NCBI RefSeq assembly: GCF_900112675.1
Contig: NZ_FOMQ01000007.1
Coordinates: 162,750 to 226,749 of the forward strand
Length of the DNA: 64,000 bases
Source: Paracidovorax konjaci
Lineage (GTDB): Bacteria > Pseudomonadota > Gammaproteobacteria > Burkholderiales > Burkholderiaceae_C
Direction: 5' to 3'
Shown: piece by piece, positions 888-36,046 of the stretch
Layout of the letters: every line of letters begins with the position of its first letter
How positions within the stretch are numbered: the stretch's first letter is position 1
Made by a program: the position numbers and the translations under genes
Notes under the pieces: model-generated
Databases searched by the model: none
Seen by the model: the letters and a program-made list of their open reading frames with translations, nothing else
What the model was told of the DNA's origin: nothing

Positions 888-1826
888 TCATGCCGCCACC
901 TCGGTGCGTTCGGCCACGCGCATCACGGCACTGCGCGCACGCGGATTGGCCTCCACTTCGGCGGCGCCGGGCTTGATGCGCTCCAGGGCCCGCAAGCGCA
1001 TCGGCTGGGGCGCGGCGAACGGCGCTCGGCGGTCGTAGACCTCCTTGGAGTGCTGCGCGATGAATTGCTTGGCGATGCGGTCTTCCAGCGAATGGAAGCT
1101 GATGACCACCAGCCGCCCACCCGGGGCGAGCACGCGCAGGCTGGCTTCCAGCGCTACCTGCAGCTCTTCCAGTTCAGCGTTGATGAAAATCCGAAGAGCT
1201 TGAAAGGTCCGTGTCGCGGGGTTCTGGCCAGCCTCGCGGGTCTTGACCGCGCCAGCCACGAGCTGGGCCAGCTCGGCGGTGGTGCGGAGCGGGCCGCGTT
1301 CCGTGCGCCAAGCAACAATCGCCTTTGCAATGGGGCCAGCAAACCGTTCTTCACCGTATTCACGAATCACCTCCGCAATCTGCCCCACATCGGCCGAGGC
1401 CAGCCAGTCGGCCACGCTTTCGCCGCGCGTGGTGTCCATGCGCATGTCGAGGGGGCCGTCGAAACGGAAACTGAAGCCCCGCCCGGGGCTGTCGATCTGC
1501 GGCGAACTCACGCCCAGGTCCATCAGGATGCCGGCGGCGCTGGCGGCCGGCAGGTCGGCCACGTGGCGAAAGCCCTCGTGCCGAATGGAAAAGCGCGCAT
1601 CGGTGATGCGCGCTGCTTCCTGGATGGCCTCGGGGTCCTTGTCGAACGCCACGAGGCGGCCCTGCGGCCCCAGCCTCTCCAATATCCGCCGGGAATGACC
1701 GCCCCGGCCGAAGGTCGCATCGACCCAGGTGCCGGCCGGCGACGGGCCGGCGCCCCCCAGCAGGGCGTCGACCGCTTCGTCCAGGAGGACGGTGGTGTGC
1801 CGAAGCAGCGATGTGGTGTCTTCCAT
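888..1826 (-). CDS. rsmH: 16S rRNA (cytosine1402-N4)-methyltransferase RsmH (MraW)
   Basis: Protein [22 protein letters not shown]...[10 protein letters not shown]...[12 protein letters not shown] has the RsmH signature. The start was trimmed from the long ORF 888..2108 to the MEDTT methionine at 1826. Confidence 0.9.
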
Positions 1827-2714: not shown

Positions 2715-4031
2715 TTACAGGATGTAGCGCGAAAGGTCTTCGTTCTGGCTGAGGCTCTCCAGGCGCCCGTCCACATACGCGGCATCGATGCGCACGGTCT
2801 GCCCGGCGAGCCGGGTGGCACCGAAGCTCACTTCGTCCAGCAGCCGCTCCATGACGGTCGAGAGGCGCCGCGCGCCGATGTTCTCGGTGCGCTCGTTGAC
2901 CTCGAAGGCGATGTGCGCAAGCCGCGTGATGCCTTCGGGCACGAACTCCAGCGTCACCCCCTCGGTGGCCAGCAGCGCCTGGTACTGCTTCACGAGCGAG
3001 GCGTGCGTCTGGGTGAGGATGGCCTCGAAGTCGCCCACGGACAGCGATTCGAGTTCGACGCGGATGGGAAAGCGCCCCTGCAGTTCGGGGATCAGGTCGC
3101 TGGGCTTGGCGAGGTGGAAGGCGCCGGACGCGATGAAGAGGATGTGGTCGGTCTTCACCATGCCGTACTTGGTGCTGACCGTGGTGCCTTCCACCAGCGG
3201 CAGCAGGTCGCGCTGCACACCCTGGCGGGACACGTCGGAGCCGCTCGCCTCCTGCCGCGTGGCCACCTTGTCGATCTCGTCGATGAAGACGATGCCGTTC
3301 TGCTCGGCGTTCTGCACGGCCCGGGTCTTGATGTCCTCTTCGTTCACCAGCTTGCCGGCCTCCTCGTCGGTGATCAGCTTGAGGGCCTCGGCGATGCGGA
3401 GCTTGCGCGTCTTGCGCCGCTCCTGGCCCATCTGGCTGAACATGCCGCGCAGTTGATCGGCCATTTCCTCCATGCCCTGCGGGCCCATGATTTCCAGCTG
3501 CGGGCGCGCGTCGGCCACGTCGATCTCGATCTCCTTGTCGTCCAGCAGGCCTTCGCGCAGCTTCTTGCGGAACACCTGGCGCGCCGTGCTGTCCGCGGGC
3601 GCCTCGCCGGTGCGCGCGGGCGGAATGAGCACATCGAGGATGCGGTCCTCGGCGGCGTCTTCAGCGCGGGTGCGCACCTTCCTGGTGTCGGCCTCGCGCG
3701 TCTGCTTCACGGCCACCTCGATCAGGTCGCGGATGATCGAATCGACGTCCTTGCCCACATAGCCCACCTCGGTGAACTTGGTGGCCTCGACCTTGATGAA
3801 AGGCGCATCCGCCAGCCGCGCGAGGCGCCGTGCGATCTCGGTCTTGCCCACGCCCGTGGGGCCGATCATGAGGATGTTCTTGGGCGTGATCTCCTGGCGC
3901 AGGCCGGCATCGACCTGCTGGCGGCGCCAGCGGTTGCGCAATGCGATGGCAACGGCGCGCTTGGCACCGGCCTGGCCGACGATGTGGCGGTCCAGTTCGG
4001 AGACGATTTCCTGGGGGGTCATGGAAGACAT
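2715..4031 (-). CDS. hslU: ATP-dependent protease ATPase subunit HslU
   Basis: [37 protein letters not shown]... closely matches the E. coli HslU N-terminus, with Walker [16 protein letters not shown]. Start set at 4031 (the ORF track extends to 4109). Confidence 0.92.
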
Positions 4032-16693: not shown

Positions 16694-16837
16694 GGAAACT
16701 CCGATGAGTCGCTCCAGCGCTTGGACGGGACACCGTCTACCCTCGCGGGACGGGAGGCTGTTTTCCCGGATAGGCGGATTCTAGTGCGCCCCGGCACGGC
16801 CTCACCAGCCCTCATCCCCCTTCCGGATGCCGCTGCC

Positions 16838-25127: not shown

Positions 25128-25474
25128 CCAAAGTGTGAAGCGCGCCGATAAGCCGGATTCTGTGCATGCGGTCGCCCGCATGTGACCGCCATTACTCTGG
25201 GCCGGGGGTCGCCCACCCGGCTCGATGCTACCTACCCGCCAGCTCCGCGGAACCACGTCAACGCTGGCCTACTTGGTATTGCTGCGCGTAGAGATTGCCC
25301 GTTTCACCCCGGCTGGTCTACCTTGCGGTACTCCCGCCGGACTCGTCTCTGTTGCTCTGATCCTCACCTCGCGGTGGACAGCCGTTAGCTGCTACGCCGT
25401 CCTGTGCAGTCCGGACGTTCCTCCAGTGCCTGGTTTCCCAGATCGCACCAGCGGCGGTCTGGCGCGCTTCACGG
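25128..25474 (-). ncRNA. rnpB: RNase P RNA (bacterial type A)
   Basis: Reverse complement contains GGAGGAACGTCCGGACTGCACAGG (P4 5' strand region, cf. GGAAAGTCCGGGCT), ...ACAGAATCCGGCTTATCGG... (P4 3' strand) and complementary P1 ends CGTGAAGCGCGCC / GGCGCGCTTCACA. Length is about 347 nt. Confidence 0.8.
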
Positions 25475-29069: not shown

Positions 29070-30686
29070 TCACGACAACCGGTCCCACGCCAGCCCGAAA
29101 CGGCCCAGGTATTTGCGCAGGCGGTCCGCATCGTTGACGGCCGTGCGCTGCGCACGCGAGGCCTGGAACAGTTGCCGCCCCGCATCCGACAGGCTGCGCG
29201 ACTGCCGGCACACCCGCACCACGGCCGCGAGCTGCAGGCGATCGAACAGGTCCAGCGCGTCCATCTGCGCGGGCCCCAGCAGGGCTTCGAGTTCAGGCAG
29301 CCCGTCCGTGCCCGCGGAATGCGCCCCCTGCGGCGGCTGCGCCGGCTGCCACAGCCAACGCAGCCGGGCGATCTCGGCCTCCACCAGCGCGAGCCCGATG
29401 CGCCCGCCTTCGGCCAGGGTCGCCAGGCGCACCACACTCGCAGACAGGTCGCGGAAGTTGCCGGACCAGAGCGCTTCCGGCGACTGCGCATAGCGCAGGT
29501 AGCCCTGCCGGGCCTCGGCCGAAAAGCGCACGCTGCGGCCCAGTTCCTCGCCGGCCCGGGCCAGCAGGTGGTCCACGTTGGGTTCGATGTCTTCCGGCCG
29601 CTGCGCCAGCCCCGGCAACTGGTAGCTCCAGAGGTTGATGCGCGCGAACAGGTCTTCGCGGAAGCGGCCTTGCGCCACTTCCGCGCGCAGGTCGCGGTTG
29701 GTGCCGGCGATGAGCTGGAAATCGCTCTCCACCTCGCGGTCGCTGCCCATCGGATAGAAGCGCTTTTCCTCCACGGCCTTGAGCAGCATGGCCTGCTCGT
29801 CCAGGCCCAGTTCACCGATCTCGTCGAGGAACAGCACACCGCCGTGGGCCGAGCGCAGCAGGCCCGCCCGGTCGGCTGCTGCGCCGGTGAAGGCACCCTT
29901 GCGGTGGCCGAACAGCGTGGATGCGGCGCCATCGCCGCGCAGCGTGGCGCAGTTGACCTCGACGAACCCGCCCTCCACCTGGTGCCGGGATTTCTTCAGT
30001 TCGTACATGCGCCGCGCGAGGTGCGACTTGCCCGCACCCGTGGGACCGGTGAAGAGGATGGGCGCGCGCGATCGCACCGCCACGCGTTCCACCTCCTCGA
30101 TGAGCGCGTTGAACGCCGGGTTGCGCGTGGCGATGCCGCTTTTGAGAAAGTCCAGCGCATCGCGCTGCTCCGCCTGGAAGCGCTGGGCCAGCGCGTCGTA
30201 GCGGGACAGATCCAGGTCGATGAGCGCGTAGCTGCCCGGGTCGCCCTCGCGCTGGCGCCGGGGCGGCGCCGTCTGCGCGAGCACACCCGGGATGCGGCGC
30301 GATTCCACCAGCAGGAAAAGGCAGATCTGCGCCACGTGCGTGCCGGTGGTGATGTGCACCCAGTACTCCTCGCGCTCCATGCGGAAGCGATAGGCCTGCA
30401 CCCAGTCGTACAGCGCGCCGTACACCTCGCCGAAATCCCACGGATCGCCGATGTCCAGCGACACCAGGCGCACGTCGGTTTCCGGCGACACCGCAGCCAG
30501 GTCGGCCTTCACCTGCGCGGCCAGGGGCGCGTGCGCCGGTGTATGGAGCAGCTCCATCCGGCGCACGACCACGTCCTCGTGCTGGGCGAGCGACACCGTG
30601 GGCCGCCATTTCTCCCACCGACCGGCGCCCTTGCCTGCATCCAGTTGGGTGCCGATGAAGCCGATGACCACTTTGCTTTTTGCCAT
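29070..30686 (-). CDS. rtcR: Sigma-54-dependent transcriptional activator RtcR (CARF sensor domain, AAA+ domain, HTH)
   Basis: N-terminal RtcR/CARF-type domain (MAKSKVVIGFIGTQLDAGKG...), AAA+ sigma-54 activator core with the GAFTGA motif (GHRKGAFTGAAADRAGLL) and Walker A GPTGAGKSHLAR. Divergent from an rtcB/rtcA operon. Confidence 0.9.
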   Translation of the reverse strand: MAKSKVVIGFIGTQLDAGKGAGRWEKWRPTVSLAQHEDVVVRRMELLHTPAHAPLAAQVKADLAAVSPETDVRLVSLDIGDPWDFGEVYGALYDWVQAYRFRMEREEYWVHITTGTHVAQICLFLLVESRRIPGVLAQTAPPRRQREGDPGSYALIDLDLSRYDALAQRFQAEQRDALDFLKSGIATRNPAFNALIEEVERVAVRSRAPILFTGPTGAGKSHLARRMYELKKSRHQVEGGFVEVNCATLRGDGAASTLFGHRKGAFTGAAADRAGLLRSAHGGVLFLDEIGELGLDEQAMLLKAVEEKRFYPMGSDREVESDFQLIAGTNRDLRAEVAQGRFREDLFARINLWSYQLPGLAQRPEDIEPNVDHLLARAGEELGRSVRFSAEARQGYLRYAQSPEALWSGNFRDLSASVVRLATLAEGGRIGLALVEAEIARLRWLWQPAQPPQGAHSAGTDGLPELEALLGPAQMDALDLFDRLQLAAVVRVCRQSRSLSDAGRQLFQASRAQRTAVNDADRLRKYLGRFGLAWDRLS

Positions 30687-30815
30687 ATCCCATTTTCTAT
30701 TTATTTATCTTTTTATATCAACTAAGAACCAACCAGTAAAGTCCGAAATCCGAGGCGCTGAGAAATATCCTTTGCAGATCAATCACTTGCAGGCAGTTCG
30801 CCCCAGATCCAGGAG

Positions 30816-30834
30816 CTGGCACGCATCTCGCAAT
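30816..30834 (+). promoter_or_regulatory. Sigma-54 (-24/-12) promoter reading toward the rtc operon
   Basis: CTGGCACGCATCTCGCAAT: TGGCAC-N5-TCGC with canonical -24 GG / -12 GC spacing (cf. glnAp2 TGGCACAGATTTCGC). It lies about 130 bp from rtcR and is preceded by an AT-rich tract (30700-30780) typical of a UAS/IHF region. Confidence 0.6.
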
Positions 30835-31007
30835 GACAAGGAGGCCAGAGACCCGTGGCGACGCTCACAGGTTGAGGGTTGTGGCGAAACGCCAGCCCTT
30901 CCGGTGCGGTGCATCCGCCGCGGGCCATCCCGCCCGGACGTCGATGCACCGCATGCCGCCCGCCACCGGGTCGCTGGCACGGCCTGCAGGTTGCAGCCCT
31001 CCGGGGT

Positions 31008-31110
31008 GCTCCGGTTCGATTCCGGGAAGGCCACTTCTGTAGCTCAGAGGTAGAGCAGCCTTGTGTCCCAAGGCCTGGCGCAGGTTCGACTCCTGCCGGA
31101 AAAACCGACC
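31008..31110 (+). ncRNA. tRNA-like structured RNA in the rtc operon leader (Y-RNA/YrlA-like candidate); not a canonical tRNA
   Basis: D-arm-like TAGCTCAGAGGTAGAGC; anticodon-arm-like GCCTT-GTGTCCC-AAGGC; T-arm-like GCAGG-TTCGACT-CCTGC. A second T-arm-like hairpin TCCGG-TTCGATT-CCGGG lies just upstream. No pairing 7-bp acceptor stem could be found. Confidence 0.45.
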
Positions 31111-31433
31111 CGGTTTCACCGCCGGGACCTTAGACGGTCGCAAGACCACCCCGCCGGACGCGGGTGCAGCGCCACGGAGCGGCCCCGCCGCCACGGTGCT
31201 GCACCCGTCAGAGGCGGCGGTTCGTGCCAGACCCGGGCACGGCCCGCGCAAGCAGCCAGCCACTCCGCAGCCCCCAGGGCCCGCGGACACGGCGCACTGC
31301 GATGCCCGTGCCGCGCCCCCTGGCTCCACCGCCACCGCTGTAACGGCACCTATTTTTGGGAACGGGCTCGTCGCCGCCAGCGGCAGCTCTCCCCTGCAGG
31401 CCGCAACGCAAGAAAGACAAAGAGGAAACCACC

Positions 31434-32567
31434 ATGCTGAAGATCCAACGCATCAAGAAGAACGAACGCGCGCTGCTGCTGCGCAACGGCGACTTCGAGC
31501 GCGTGCTGCACAGCGGCGCGCACTGGCTCTTCGCCGGCACCGACCAGCTGCGCGTGGAGACCTTCGCGCTGGAGCAGCCCGCCTTCACCCACGGCCTGGC
31601 CGATTACCTGATGGCCCGTGAACCCGAGGTGGTGGCCCGCGAGTTCGTGCGTGCCGAACTGACCGAAACCCAGGCGGGCCTGCGCACCGAGAACGGCGTG
31701 CTGGTCGAGATCCTGCCGCCGGGCACCCGGCGCCTCTACTGGAAGGGGCTGGTGGACGTGGCCGTGGAGGTGGTGGACCTGTCGCAGGGCGTGGACGTGC
31801 CCGCCGCGCTGGCCGCGCGGCTGGTGCAGACGCAGCTGCGCCACAAGCCCGTGGCCGGCCTGAACGGCGTGCTGCAGGTGCAGGTGCCCGAGGCGATGTG
31901 CGCCATCCTCACCATCGACGGCAAGGTCGAGCGGCTGCTGGGCGCCGGAATGCACGCGTTCTGGAAGTTCGGCCGCCACATCGGCGCGGAGCTGGTGGAC
32001 CTGCGCCTGCAGACGCTGGACGTGTCGGGCCAGGACATCATGACGCGCGACAAGGTCGGCCTGCGGATCAACCTGTGCGCCACCTGGCGCTACGCGGACG
32101 TTCTGCTGGCGCACCGGCGCCTGCCCAAGCCTGCCGATCACCTCTACCGCGAGCTGCAGTTCGCGCTGCGCTCCGCCGTGGGCACCCGCACGCTCGACGA
32201 GCTGCTGGAGGACAAGACGGCGATCGACGACGTGGTGCGCGCGCACCTGGTCGGCAAGCTGCCGGCCTACGGCATGGAACTCGACGGCGTGGGCGTGAAG
32301 GACATCGTGCTGCCCGGCGACATGAAGGCCATCCTGACCCAGGTGGTGCAGGCGGAAAAGCAGGCCCAGGCCAACGTGATCCGCCGCCGCGAGGAAACCG
32401 CCGCGACGCGCTCGCTGCTCAACACCGCCAAGGTGATGGAAGACAACCCCGTGGCCCTGCGCATGAAAGAGCTGGAAACGCTCGAGCGCGTGGCCGAACG
32501 CATCGACAAGATCTCCGTGTTCGGCGGGCTGGACCAGGTGCTGAACGGCCTGGTGAAGATGCGCTGA
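31434..32567 (+). CDS. SPFH/band-7 (stomatin/prohibitin/flotillin-like) domain protein, first gene of the RtcR-controlled operon
   Basis: C-terminal half GVKDIVLPGDMKAILTQVVQAEKQAQANVIRRREETAATRSLLNTAKVMEDNPVALRMKELETLERVAE is a typical SPFH core plus coiled-coil. AAGAGGA RBS before the ATG at 31434. Confidence 0.8.
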   Translation: MLKIQRIKKNERALLLRNGDFERVLHSGAHWLFAGTDQLRVETFALEQPAFTHGLADYLMAREPEVVAREFVRAELTETQAGLRTENGVLVEILPPGTRRLYWKGLVDVAVEVVDLSQGVDVPAALAARLVQTQLRHKPVAGLNGVLQVQVPEAMCAILTIDGKVERLLGAGMHAFWKFGRHIGAELVDLRLQTLDVSGQDIMTRDKVGLRINLCATWRYADVLLAHRRLPKPADHLYRELQFALRSAVGTRTLDELLEDKTAIDDVVRAHLVGKLPAYGMELDGVGVKDIVLPGDMKAILTQVVQAEKQAQANVIRRREETAATRSLLNTAKVMEDNPVALRMKELETLERVAERIDKISVFGGLDQVLNGLVKMR

Positions 32568-32618: not shown

Positions 32619-33467
32619 ATGAACAAGAAGAAAGCCATGGCACCCGGCGCCGGGCCCCAGCCGCCGCGGGAGGGCCTGCAGGCCGCGCTGGACGCGTCCA
32701 TCGAAGCGGCCTACCGCGTGTTCGGCGCGTACCGCGCGCCCGCCGGGCTGCTGGATGTGTGCACGGCCTGCTGCATGAACGCGGCCCTGGAACGCGAGAT
32801 GCGCAGCCGCCCCCTGCGCTCGCTCACCGAGCGGCATTTCTACGAATACAACGACAGCGCGAAAAGCGCCACCCAGCCCGCGGACGAGATCAAGTACCTG
32901 CTGCCCCGGCTGCTGGAACTGCTTGTCCAGGGCGCGCGGCTGCACCATTCGACCGAGCTGTACATCGACCGCGTGGGCCGTTGCGAACCGGGCGCCTTCT
33001 CCGCACGCGAGCAGCAGGCGCTGCAGGACGTCGCACTGGCGCACTTCGCGCTGGGCCTGGAGCAGTGGGCCGAGCCGGACCAGGGCGTCTTCCAGAAGGA
33101 CGATGCCTTCACGGTGCTGCTCATGTGGGACCATGCCGGCGTGGATCTCGCGCCGCTGCTGGACCACTGGCTCGCCTGCGACAGCGACTCGTCCGCGCTG
33201 CATTACGTGGATGCCTCGTACTGGGGCTTCGTGCTGAACGGCCGGCAGATCGGCGGCGCCTTCTCGAAGGACCGCCCGCGCTACCGCGAAGCCGTGGAGC
33301 ACTGGCTGACGGCCCCGGAGCACCAGGACCGGTTCACGGCCAAGCTGCTGCAGATGATGGACCGCCGCCCCGCGGATGGCTGGCTGCCGCCGGGCACGCC
33401 CGAATGCGGCTGCCACTCCACGCTGAACGACCGCATCGACGCCGTGTTCGACACCATCGCGCGATGA
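32619..33467 (+). CDS. Hypothetical Cys-rich protein (282 aa) between the SPFH gene and rtcB
   Basis: No recognisable domain by eye. Contains CTACCMNAA and PECGCH motifs. Same strand, with short spacers to neighbours (52 bp and 59 bp). Confidence 0.55.
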   Translation: MNKKKAMAPGAGPQPPREGLQAALDASIEAAYRVFGAYRAPAGLLDVCTACCMNAALEREMRSRPLRSLTERHFYEYNDSAKSATQPADEIKYLLPRLLELLVQGARLHHSTELYIDRVGRCEPGAFSAREQQALQDVALAHFALGLEQWAEPDQGVFQKDDAFTVLLMWDHAGVDLAPLLDHWLACDSDSSALHYVDASYWGFVLNGRQIGGAFSKDRPRYREAVEHWLTAPEHQDRFTAKLLQMMDRRPADGWLPPGTPECGCHSTLNDRIDAVFDTIAR

Positions 33468-33526: not shown

Positions 33527-34774
33527 ATGAACGAACCACAGAACCATCCCTCCGCCCCCTCCCACCAGGTCCACCGCGTCGAAGGCGGCGTGCCCGTGAA
33601 GATGTGGACGCAGGGCGTGCCCGTCGAGGACGAGGCGCGCCAGCAGCTCGAGAACGCCGCGCGCCTGCCCATCGTGTTCAAGCACATCGCGGCCATGCCC
33701 GACGTGCACTACGGCATCGGCGCCACCGTGGGCTCGGTGATCCCGACCTTCAAGGCCATCATCCCGGCCGCCGTGGGCGTGGACATCGGCTGCGGCATGA
33801 TGGCCTGCAAGACCACGCTGCACGCGAACGACCTGCCCGACAACCTGGGCCCGCTGCGCTCGGCCATCGAGCGGGCGGTACCGCACGGCAGCAACCCGAA
33901 GCGCCAGGGCCGCGACAAGGGTGCGTGGGACACCCCGCCGGACGAGACCGACCGCGCCTGGGCCGGCCTGAAGGACGAGTTCGACCGCCTCTGCGAGGAC
34001 TATCCGCGCCTGGCGAACACCAACAACCACAAGCACCTGGGCACGCTCGGCACCGGCAACCACTTCATCGAGGTGTGCCTGGACGAGCACGGCGCCGTGT
34101 GGTTCATGCTGCACTCGGGCTCGCGCGGGGTGGGCAACGCCATCGGCACGCACTTCATCGAACTGGCGAAGAAGGATGCCGAACTGCACCAGCGCAACCT
34201 GCCGGACCGCGACCTCGCGTACTTCGAGGAAGGCGCCCGCTACTTCGGCGACTACGTGCGCGCCGTCGGCTGGGCGCAGAAGTTCGCGCGCGCCAACCGC
34301 GAGGTGATGATGCACCGCCTGATCGGCGCCGTGCGCTCGGTGATCGCCAAGCCGTTCGAGACCCACCTCGAAGCGGTGAACTGCCACCACAACTACGTGA
34401 GCCGCGAGACGCATTTCGGCGAAGACGTGCTCGTCACCCGCAAGGGCGCCGTGAGCGCCAAGGCCGGCGAGCTGGGGATCATCCCCGGAAGCATGGGCGC
34501 CAAGAGCTACATCGTGCGCGGCAAGGGCAACCCCGAGAGCTTCATGAGCTGCAGCCACGGCGCAGGCCGCAAGATGAGCCGCACCAAGGCGAAGAAGCTC
34601 TACAGCGTGGCCGACCAGATCGCCGCGACCGAGGGCGTCGAGTGCCGCAAGGATGCCGACGTGATCGACGAGATCCCGATGGCCTACAAGGACATCGACG
34701 CCGTGATGGCGGCCCAGAAGGACCTGGTGGACGTGGTGTACACGCTCAAGCAGGTGGTGTGCGTGAAGGGATAG
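33527..34774 (+). CDS. rtcB: RNA-splicing ligase RtcB (3'-phosphate/2',3'-cyclic phosphate RNA ligase)
   Basis: 416 aa with the hallmark metal/GTP-binding motifs (...GTLGTGNHFIEV..., ...HSGSRGVGN..., ...CHHNY..., ...SHGAGR...). Confidence 0.92.
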   Translation: MNEPQNHPSAPSHQVHRVEGGVPVKMWTQGVPVEDEARQQLENAARLPIVFKHIAAMPDVHYGIGATVGSVIPTFKAIIPAAVGVDIGCGMMACKTTLHANDLPDNLGPLRSAIERAVPHGSNPKRQGRDKGAWDTPPDETDRAWAGLKDEFDRLCEDYPRLANTNNHKHLGTLGTGNHFIEVCLDEHGAVWFMLHSGSRGVGNAIGTHFIELAKKDAELHQRNLPDRDLAYFEEGARYFGDYVRAVGWAQKFARANREVMMHRLIGAVRSVIAKPFETHLEAVNCHHNYVSRETHFGEDVLVTRKGAVSAKAGELGIIPGSMGAKSYIVRGKGNPESFMSCSHGAGRKMSRTKAKKLYSVADQIAATEGVECRKDADVIDEIPMAYKDIDAVMAAQKDLVDVVYTLKQVVCVKG

Positions 34775-34795: not shown

Positions 34796-34859
34796 TCGCT
34801 ACATATTTAATAGCAAACTATTGAATGAATCCGGCGGCATGAGGCCATTTTTATGCAAC
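34796..34859 (+). repeat. Repeat element copy D (forward, left arm partly missing) between rtcB and rtcA
   Basis: GCTACATATTTAATAGCAAACTATTGAATGAATCCGGCGGCATGAGGCCATTTTTATGCAAC. Its terminal ATGCAAC is the first ATG of the rtcA ORF called in the ORF track (34853). Confidence 0.75.
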
Positions 34860-34903
34860 AACAAGAAGAATTCCCGCGATCGGCGCATCCGATCGCCCCG
34901 GAC

Positions 34904-36046
34904 ATGCGCGTGGAATCTCCGCAAGGCGTTACCGTCCACCGCGGCGGACCGGGGGGTGCCGTGGCGCTTTCTCCGCAACCCCTGGTCCTCGACGGCTCGC
35001 ACGGCGAGGGCGGCGGGCAGATCCTGCGCACGGGCCTGGCGCTCTCGATGGTGACGGGGCGCCCGCTGCGGATCGACCGCATCCGCGCCGGGCGGCCCAA
35101 GCCCGGGCTCATGCGCCAACACCTCGCGTGCGTGCAGGCCGCCGCCGAGGTCTGCGGCGCGCAGGCCGAGGGCGCCGAGCCGGGATCGACCGCCCTGCAT
35201 TTCAGGCCCGGTGCCGTGCGCGCGGGCGACTACCGGTTCGCGATCTCGGGCGCCGGCAGTTGCCTGCTGGTGCTGCAGACCGTGCTGCCCGCGCTGCTGC
35301 TGGCGCAGGCGCCGAGCCGCGTGCAGCTCACGGGCGGCACGCACAACCCGATGGCGCCGCCGTTCGACTTCCTGGAGCTGGCCTTCGCGCCGCTGGTGCG
35401 GCGGCTGGGCGCGGGGCTGGACCTCACGCTGCGCCGCCGGGGTTTCTACCCCGCGGGCGGCGGCGAGGTGCAGGCCACCGTCACACCCGCCGCCACGGGG
35501 CTGGAGCCTTTCGACCTGCTCGATCGCGGCCCCTGCCGCGGTGCCTGGGCGCAGGCGGTGGCGCCGGGGCTGGCGCGCGGGATCGCGCGGCGCGAACTGG
35601 AAGCGCTGCGCCGCCACCTCGGCTGGCCGGGCGACCTGGCGGCCGGGCAACTGCGGGTGGCTCCCGCCCGGCAGAACGAAGGGCCCGGCAACGCGCTGCT
35701 CGCCGTGCTGGAGCACGGCGGGGTGACCGAGGTGTTCTGCGCGCTGGGCGAGCGCGGCGTCTCCGCCGAGGCCGTGGCGCACACGCTGGCCGCCGAGGTC
35801 ATCGGCTACCGGCAAGGCGGCGGCGCGGTGGGCCCGCACCTGGCCGACCAGTGGATGCTGCCGCTCGCGCTGGCCGTCTGGCGCAGCGGGCGCAGCGCCG
35901 CCTACACCGCCACGCAGGCCACCCTGCACACGCGCACGCATGCCGAACTGATTCCCCGGGGGCTGCCCGTGCGGATCACGCTGACGGAGCAGGCCGGGGG
36001 AACGCGCATCGACATCGCCCCGGCGGAGGGCCCGGCGCCGGCATAA
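34904..36046 (+). CDS. rtcA: RNA 3'-terminal phosphate cyclase RtcA
   Basis: ...[46 protein letters not shown]... matches the RtcA N-terminus. Start is uncertain: an in-frame ATG at 34853 lies inside the repeat element, and the ATG at 34904 is used here. Confidence 0.85.

Follow-up and report, generated by a model that had tools for sequence, protein, structure and literature searches.

Tandem tRNA-like modules in the leader of a Band-7/rtcB/rtcA operon of Paracidovorax konjaci: a candidate RNA partner

Why does the leader of an rtc operon carry something that looks like a tRNA? The question is posed by positions 31008-31110 of the window, the term used here for the whole 64,000-nucleotide stretch of Paracidovorax konjaci DNA that was analysed. 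An earlier note on this DNA had described the segment as a tRNA-like RNA with two T-arm-like hairpins and no acceptor stem, built like the Y RNA YrlA and perhaps serving as a decoy, sensor substrate or scaffold in connection with the regulator RtcR. Our comparison with related loci leads to a different reading, in which the segment is the tRNA-like core of a structured leader RNA of about 500 nt that is co-transcribed with Band-7, rtcB and rtcA and acts as a partner or scaffold; we hold this reading, taken as a whole, with about even confidence.

An rtc operon with a Band-7 gene

The location given by the earlier note, in the leader of an RtcR/sigma-54 rtc operon, is borne out by the Pfam gene calls and by a promoter of the sigma-54 type. 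The parts of the locus are as follows.

29070-30686, minus strand: rtcR, a sigma-54 activator with an RtcR/CARF N-terminal domain, divergent from the leader (Pfam RtcR, 2.4e-81; Sigma54_activat, AAA+, 6e-50)
30818-30833, plus strand: sigma-54-type promoter TGGCAC-N5-TCGCA, read from the sequence, with a predicted transcription start near 30844
31434-32567, plus strand: Band-7/SPFH ('slipin family') gene, the first of the operon (Pfam Band_7, 5.1e-29)
32619-33467, plus strand: open reading frame of 282 amino acids between Band-7 and RtcB, family not found in Pfam or NCBIfam
33530-34774, plus strand: rtcB, RNA ligase (Pfam RtcB, 6.7e-129)
34853-36046, plus strand: rtcA, RNA 3'-phosphate cyclase (Pfam RTC, 4.2e-75)

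A gap of about 600 nt separates the promoter from the Band-7 gene in the window. The Band-7 protein shares 98% identity with the 'slipin family protein' of Acidovorax sp. NCPPB 4044 and has no TM-like segment (maximum KD19 hydropathy 1.28), a property of its sequence that we would count in favour of a soluble partner. An AlphaFold2 model built with 12 sequences (pLDDT 62.5, pTM 0.37) was too poor for inspection of an RNA-binding surface or of the fold. No TROVE/Ro60/Rsr gene is present in the operon, where the Pfam search of the genes gave Band_7, the reading frame without a family, RtcB and RTC.

Several other elements were seen at this locus and its relatives. Homologues of the 282-residue reading frame lie 3' of Band-7 in 10 related loci, and between Band-7 and RtcB wherever RtcB was seen. 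A sigma-70-like promoter match at 30692-30721 (minus strand) immediately precedes the rtcR start in the direction of rtcR transcription. An RNase P RNA gene at 25133-25470 (minus strand; Rfam, 199.9 bits) lies ~3.6 kb beyond rtcR, and in one relative (locus L002) rnpB (1254-1605, minus strand) adjoins rtcR, which may merely reflect synteny. A chrB-b RNA motif was also found at 16714-16769 (minus strand), with 41.6 bits against an Rfam threshold of 36.5.

Two tRNA-like modules in tandem

The D arm, the 5-bp anticodon-like stem with its 7-nt loop, the T arm and the additional T arm upstream that the earlier note had picked out are all present in the sequence. The first three belong to a cloverleaf, which we call module 2.

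31034-31104, plus strand: module 2, a cloverleaf of the type termed b7a-tRNA (see below), supported by ARAGORN, Rfam tRNA, model R1 and alignment A4
31035-39/31097-101, plus strand: short acceptor stem of 5 bp
31040-31056, plus strand: D arm UAGCUCAGAGGUAGAGC, stem 31042-45/31053-56
31058-62/31070-74, plus strand: anticodon-like stem GCCUU/AAGGC with the 7-nt loop GUGUCCC
31080-31096, plus strand: T2 arm GCAGG-UUCGACU-CCUGC, stem 31080-84/31092-96

The match of module 2 to tRNA is far beyond chance. ARAGORN calls a tRNA-Asp(GTC) at 31033-31106, its sole tRNA call within the 64-kb window; the Rfam tRNA model (RF00005) gives 38.3 bits at 31033-31104, where the gathering score is 29 (E=1.6e-4 in a search of the 64-kb window); and R1, a covariance model made from 20 relatives with the window left out, scores 62.9 bits on the window's module 2. 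In A4, a model-based alignment of 60 matches comprising 57 distinct sequences, 95.6% of cells are paired, compared with 76.3% in shuffles and 36-49% in controls with slid partners, and 13 of 19 pairs show compensatory changes, the anticodon stem covarying heavily. Covariation of the cloverleaf is thus strong; the D stem GCUC/GAGC is invariant in the 60 sequences, as are the GG and GGUUCGA. With the tandem region aligned by MAFFT alone, RNAalifold recovered no more than the T and D arms because arms of variable length were misaligned, a problem that the covariance model solved.

Module 2 is like canonical tRNA (RF00005) in its cloverleaf, its standard D and T arms and its score above the Rfam threshold, but differs from it in an acceptor of 4-5 bp instead of 7 bp, in the lack of CCA and in an anticodon that is variable or absent among orthologues. 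The earlier description of an RNA lacking an acceptor stem is accurate for a 7-bp stem, the two outermost pairs being mismatched in the window, but it overlooks the 5-bp stem, of which the four inner pairs covary and the fifth pairs in ~47% of the 57 distinct sequences. No CCA follows module 2 in the window sequence, and its position 37 is C. At orthologous loci ARAGORN reads more than 12 'anticodons' (Asp, Cys, Met, Val, Thr, Phe, Ile, Glu, Ala, Arg, Asn, Pro and Stop, with some uncallable), and loci of the Acidovorax and Pseudomonas types have a tetraloop (GNRA or UUCG-type) where the anticodon loop would be. Given that the anticodon is variable or replaced by a tetraloop while the body is kept, selection is on the body and the elbow and not on decoding, and we agree with the earlier note that this is a mimic of tRNA and not a tRNA gene. 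The elbow nucleotides (G18 G19; G53 U54 U55 C56 ... A58) are present in the D and T arms, and the invariance of the D stem together with both T-loops fits selection on the elbow.

The earlier note had placed the second T-arm-like hairpin ~55 nt upstream. The two T arms start 70 nt apart, and the upstream one is no spare hairpin: covariation assigns it to an acceptor-stem and T-arm module of its own, module 1.

30981-31033, plus strand: module 1, a mini tRNA-like unit, supported by covariation on a MAFFT-only alignment of 15 relatives
30981-85/31028-32, plus strand: acceptor-like stem GGCCU/AGGCC
30986-94, plus strand: D-like hairpin GCA-GGU-UGC
30997-31006, plus strand: hairpin CCC-UCCG-GGG
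31010-31026, plus strand: T1 arm UCCGG-UUCGAUU-CCGGG, stem 31010-14/31022-26

A31033 occupies the discriminator position of this unit. Paired T-loop motifs (GGUUCGAnnC), accepted only at a spacing of 60-90 nt, occur in 64 of 81 upstream regions, typically 68-82 nt apart. In relatives module 1 consists of a stem of 5-8 bp with its 3' strand directly against the T1 arm, a short D-like hairpin or loop containing GG, and a small tetraloop hairpin; the stem has 51 distinct sequences among the 64 loci. NCCA comes after the stem in ~42 of the 64, as an internal part of a longer transcript; the window and its clade have lost the CCA.

On its own, a helix of 5-7 bp in a GC-rich RNA is unconvincing: measured locus by locus against shuffled upstream sequence, the module 1 stem has a median p of ~0.15, and 0.31 in the window. 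The case for module 1 thus rests on covariation. In the MAFFT-only alignment of 15 Acidovorax-like loci its three helices are 94.7% paired, 8 of 14 pairs are compensatory, and for four of the five measures 0 of 500 shuffles reach the observed value. Downstream of T1, the strand pairs with one upstream of T1 (89.9% paired, with compensatory changes). The stem is GGCCU/AGGCC in the window and GGCGAU/AUCGCC in P. anthurii, a difference in which the changes on the two strands compensate. In its acceptor stem stacked on the T arm, its reduced D region with a GG loop and the NCCA that follows the stem in most relatives, module 1 resembles the tRNA-like domain of tmRNA and viral 3' tRNA-like structures; unlike tmRNA it has no tag reading frame, and ARAGORN, which searches for tmRNA, reported none.

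Four Pseudomonas loci (L074-L076 and L080, at about 3590-3760) present both modules as complete cloverleaves. There, the acceptor stem of module 1 reaches 7 bp and a D arm is present, the anticodon arms of both modules are capped by four-base loops, and both modules are called by the Rfam tRNA model (60.3 and 45.6 bits).

A structured leader of about 500 nt and its distribution

Both modules lie within a structured leader of about 500 nt which, judged from sequence comparison, runs from about 30844 to 31350 and comprises the following elements besides the tandem core.

30844-30978, plus strand: 5' structured domain (RNAalifold on 32 training leaders; held-out test A7), with a closing helix 30844-52/30970-78, a hairpin 30870-79/30895-902 and a long hairpin 30903-17/30939-57
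31109-31126, plus strand: hairpin CCCGG-UUUCACCG-CCGGG 3' of module 2, of variable sequence among relatives
31136-31147, plus strand: conserved GNRA hairpin GGUC-GCAA-GACC, 87.5% paired in the held-out set
31153-31350, plus strand: 3' structured domain (RNAalifold consensus; held-out test A8), with a closing helix GCCG/CGGC 31153-56/31344-47, a helix 31160-65/31203-08 and a long arm 31209-21/31328-40 with inner helices

The consensus structure was obtained with RNAalifold on 32 leaders and tested, in a split-half design, on 30 held-out loci and the window, the held-out set being aligned by MAFFT alone (E-INS-i). For the 5' domain (39 pairs) the held-out sequences are 82.6% paired against 71.7% when shuffled, with 28 compensatory pairs and slid controls at 31-49%; the corresponding values for the 3' domain (59 pairs) are 80.4% against 69.8%, 44 compensatory pairs and 34-44%. 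In both tests 0 of 500 shuffles reach the observed value on any of the five measures. The window RNA 30844-31352 folds at -279 kcal/mol, compared with -239 ± 7 for shuffles (z=-5.4).

Blocks of sequence on both sides of the core are conserved across orders, namely GCUCACAGG...CCGGUGC; GUCGAUG...GCAUGCCGC; ACGGUCGAAAGACCA, the block of the GNRA hairpin, which is conserved in most Burkholderiales loci; CCCGCCGAACGCGGG; GUCAGCGG...; GCAGCCAGCC; and CGCUGUAACGGCACC (31336-31350), in which the 3' domain ends. The long hairpin of the 5' domain is flanked by the conserved motifs CCGGUG and AUGCCGC. As estimated from their alignment, the window and P. anthurii are ~80% identical downstream of the promoter and align poorly upstream of it. 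The 3' end block is found in 52 of 81 loci, its median distance to the start codon being 47 nt. Across these 52 loci the conserved block CUGUAACGGCACC is followed by 10 nt that are poor in G (13% vs 31%) and rich in U (33% vs 16%), a composition that suggests a flexible single-stranded linker to the ribosome-binding site or a processing site in the region 31351-31433 of the window and its equivalents.

How widely is this arrangement kept? Through an alignment of Band-7 homologues (60-90% protein identity, one genome per species) we collected 80 loci from Burkholderiales, Rhodocyclales, Gallionellaceae, Pseudomonas and Silanimonas, so that linkage is read from Band-7 to the RNA and not conversely. 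Model R1 finds module 2 upstream of the Band-7 gene in 76 of the 80, at a distance of 250-490 nt (330 nt in the window), and in about half of them ARAGORN reports a tRNA-like element 300-490 nt upstream. An RtcB gene follows downstream, both here and in most of the related loci. A divergent rtcR with a sigma-54 promoter, as in the window, occurs at about half of the loci, and in 27 of 44 leaders of the rtcR type the sigma-54 element lies 116-165 nt from the rtcR start. The leader RNA is nevertheless kept where no rtcR occurs within 4 kb, as is the case at 27 or more of the loci; it therefore tracks Band-7 and RtcB, and not RtcR.

At least 27 rtcR-less loci (L014-L061; for example L015, 1141-3434) have an open reading frame for an HNH endonuclease directly upstream of the leader RNA on the same strand, and in most rtcR-less loci arrays of 1-13 canonical tRNA genes precede it. 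These HNH-type loci echo the TrcR regulon of Anabaena (PMC10272220), to which a tRNA operon, an HNH endonuclease, a slipin and rtcB likewise belong.

Metagenomic and viral sequences were searched as well. A metagenome scan with CATGCCGC-N(42-72)-GGTTCGANTCC was swamped by ordinary tRNA genes and left 2-3 true matches, of which the two with recognisable genes (L234 and L285) both have Band-7 downstream. A viral scan with the 14-mer GCTGTAACGGCACC gave 120 chance matches, none with an upstream T-loop, and a Band-7 search of viral contigs gave one truncated locus; in neither viral search was there any sign that the RNA is a phage element.

Known relatives, rival explanations and a proposed role

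As related in a preprint (bioRxiv 10.1101/312249), Burroughs and Aravind (Nucleic Acids Res 2016;44:8525) predicted a band-7-associated tRNA, or b7a-tRNA, a strongly tRNA-like non-coding RNA adjoining Band-7 and RtcB genes, which was proposed to parallel YrlA, was thought to be redundant with it and was, as of 2018, 'not validated experimentally'. Module 2 is like this RNA in lying directly beside a Band-7/SPFH gene with RtcB linked; b7a-tRNA has no Rfam family, and we equate the two through this secondary description and not through the authors' alignment. On that footing the segment is largely explained by the predicted b7a-tRNA class. The abstract of the 2016 paper reportedly names 'a novel tRNA-like molecule' as the cognate RNA of SPFH/Band-7 modules. 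Our literature search found no later validation or other mention of b7a-tRNA. As far as the secondary account of the original paper goes, we found no description of a second module with NCCA or of two covarying flanking domains. The larger RNA of ~500 nt is apparently undescribed in the literature, and a permissive search of Rfam 15 with the leader from this locus and four relatives returned tRNA, sub-threshold YrlA and noise, the flanking domains remaining unmatched.

YrlA (Rfam RF02553; Chen et al., 2014, PMC4201824) is a bacterial Y RNA of ~100 nt with a tRNA-like domain. Our leader shares with it tRNA-like T and D arms with elbow nucleotides and, in the RtcR-controlled rtc operons of Salmonella, the position of a co-transcribed non-coding RNA, and in function it bears comparison with the YrlA of the Salmonella rsr-yrlBA-rtcBA operon. 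The YrlA architecture claimed by the earlier note is not supported. YrlA is a permuted tRNA (T arm, closed acceptor-like hairpin, D arm) that lacks an anticodon arm and has Rsr/Ro60 as its partner, whereas here two normally ordered modules stand in an operon with a Band-7 gene and no Rsr. Sub-threshold matches might be taken to point to a YrlA/Y RNA family member whose partner, a Ro60/Rsr protein, has its gene in another part of the genome; they reach 18.8 bits in the window and 31.7, 36.6 and 41.2 in relatives, all below the gathering score of 69, and the model aligns only to the junction of T1 arm, spacer and D arm, with non-canonical pairs in the acceptor-like hairpin of the relatives. Nor is the closed hairpin of the YrlA type supported (59.6% paired vs 61.3% shuffled, 445 of 500 shuffles being as high), and the competing tandem pairing covaries. 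GGCGAA occurs at 30881-86, where it is followed by AC and not by the G of the Rsr-binding motif GNCGAAN0-1G, in a hairpin loop that varies among relatives. Family membership is refuted by the tests of score, topology and operon content, and we rate it as very improbable; a shared derivation from tRNA accounts for the resemblance. Still less credible is a degenerate tRNA-Asp gene or a tRNA remnant of mobile-element integration, suggested by the ARAGORN and Rfam calls and by the tRNA arrays near some relatives. The element keeps its place and its fold across orders, with compensatory changes but without any anticodon identity, its acceptor stem is always truncated and it is embedded in conserved flanking RNA domains, findings by which this explanation is effectively refuted.

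The main rival to a partner RNA is a folded 5' UTR that acts in cis on elongation, mRNA stability or translation of Band-7 and rtcBA, and that might autoregulate through modules that bind RtcB, Band-7 or a tRNA-processing or -modifying enzyme. The RNA always lies immediately 5' of Band-7 and co-oriented with it, and a purely cis-acting leader would look identical; no plus-strand intrinsic terminator was found between the two, the most conserved 3' block ends close before the start codon, and a ~500-nt structure has room for a sensing function. However, no conserved helix involves the Shine-Dalgarno sequence or the start codon, the sole contact in the RNAalifold structure being a 1-2-bp pairing 31034-35/31424-25, the linker to the ribosome-binding site is unstructured and variable, no alternative terminator/antiterminator pair was seen, and the tRNA-like RNAs of the analogous Salmonella operon are stable trans-acting Y RNAs; weighing these points, we consider a cis-acting leader rather unlikely. 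Improbable, in our judgement, is the idea of an RtcR-directed mimic that serves as decoy, sensor substrate or source of ligand for a CARF domain responding to tRNA halves with cyclic-phosphate ends. It gains some weight from the activation of Salmonella RtcR by damaged or nicked tRNAs and from the RtcR-dependent promoter that would make the window's RNA, but loses it again where the RNA is conserved with an HNH gene in place of rtcR, in an anticodon loop (the site of the known activating cleavages) that is unconserved or a stable tetraloop, and in the finding that the activating nuclease leaves Salmonella YrlA uncut.

By analogy with Ro and Y RNA, the likeliest role of the leader RNA would be that of a partner or scaffold for Band-7 and RtcB, the model already put forward for b7a-tRNA. 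We propose that transcription of the operon from its RtcR-dependent sigma-54 promoter also yields the RNA, which would then be cut from the mRNA in the G-poor, U-rich linker 3' of the 3' domain, to persist as a stable species. It may present one or two tRNA 'elbows', the corners of T-loop and D-loop, to a soluble Band-7 oligomer and to RtcB, which would bind it in a manner parallel to the partnering of Ro60/Rsr by the tRNA-like YrlA in Salmonella rtc operons. A bolder version, which we regard as possible and put forward tentatively, is that the ornate RNA of ~500 nt, with its 5' domain, two modules and 3' domain, is processed and assembles with a soluble SPFH/Band-7 oligomer into a particle resembling Ro/Y RNA complexes or vaults, which would work with RtcB on damaged tRNAs; during the processing, the NCCA terminus of module 1 may be uncovered by RNase P or by trimming at the 3' side.

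The wider question is what bacterial RtcB acts on and which cofactors it uses; work on these operons has dealt with their Ro60/Y-RNA arm and not with the Band-7 arm. The latter is also found in tractable organisms, among them Pseudomonas aeruginosa, whose rtc locus contains PaFlo8. Our analysis supplies the boundaries and the comparative structure of a putative RNA partner for this arm and indicates what is under selection, namely two elbows and short acceptor stems, and not the anticodon; the comparative results turn the b7a-tRNA prediction of 2016 into testable experiments. If the RNA of ~500 nt is indeed undescribed, it is a candidate for a new large structured bacterial RNA, absent from Rfam 15. 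Finally, if the bolder version is true, the HNH-type sister loci, in which the RNA, Band-7 and RtcB are combined with an HNH nuclease and spare tRNA arrays in place of RtcR, would make this cassette part of a modular response to tRNA damage.
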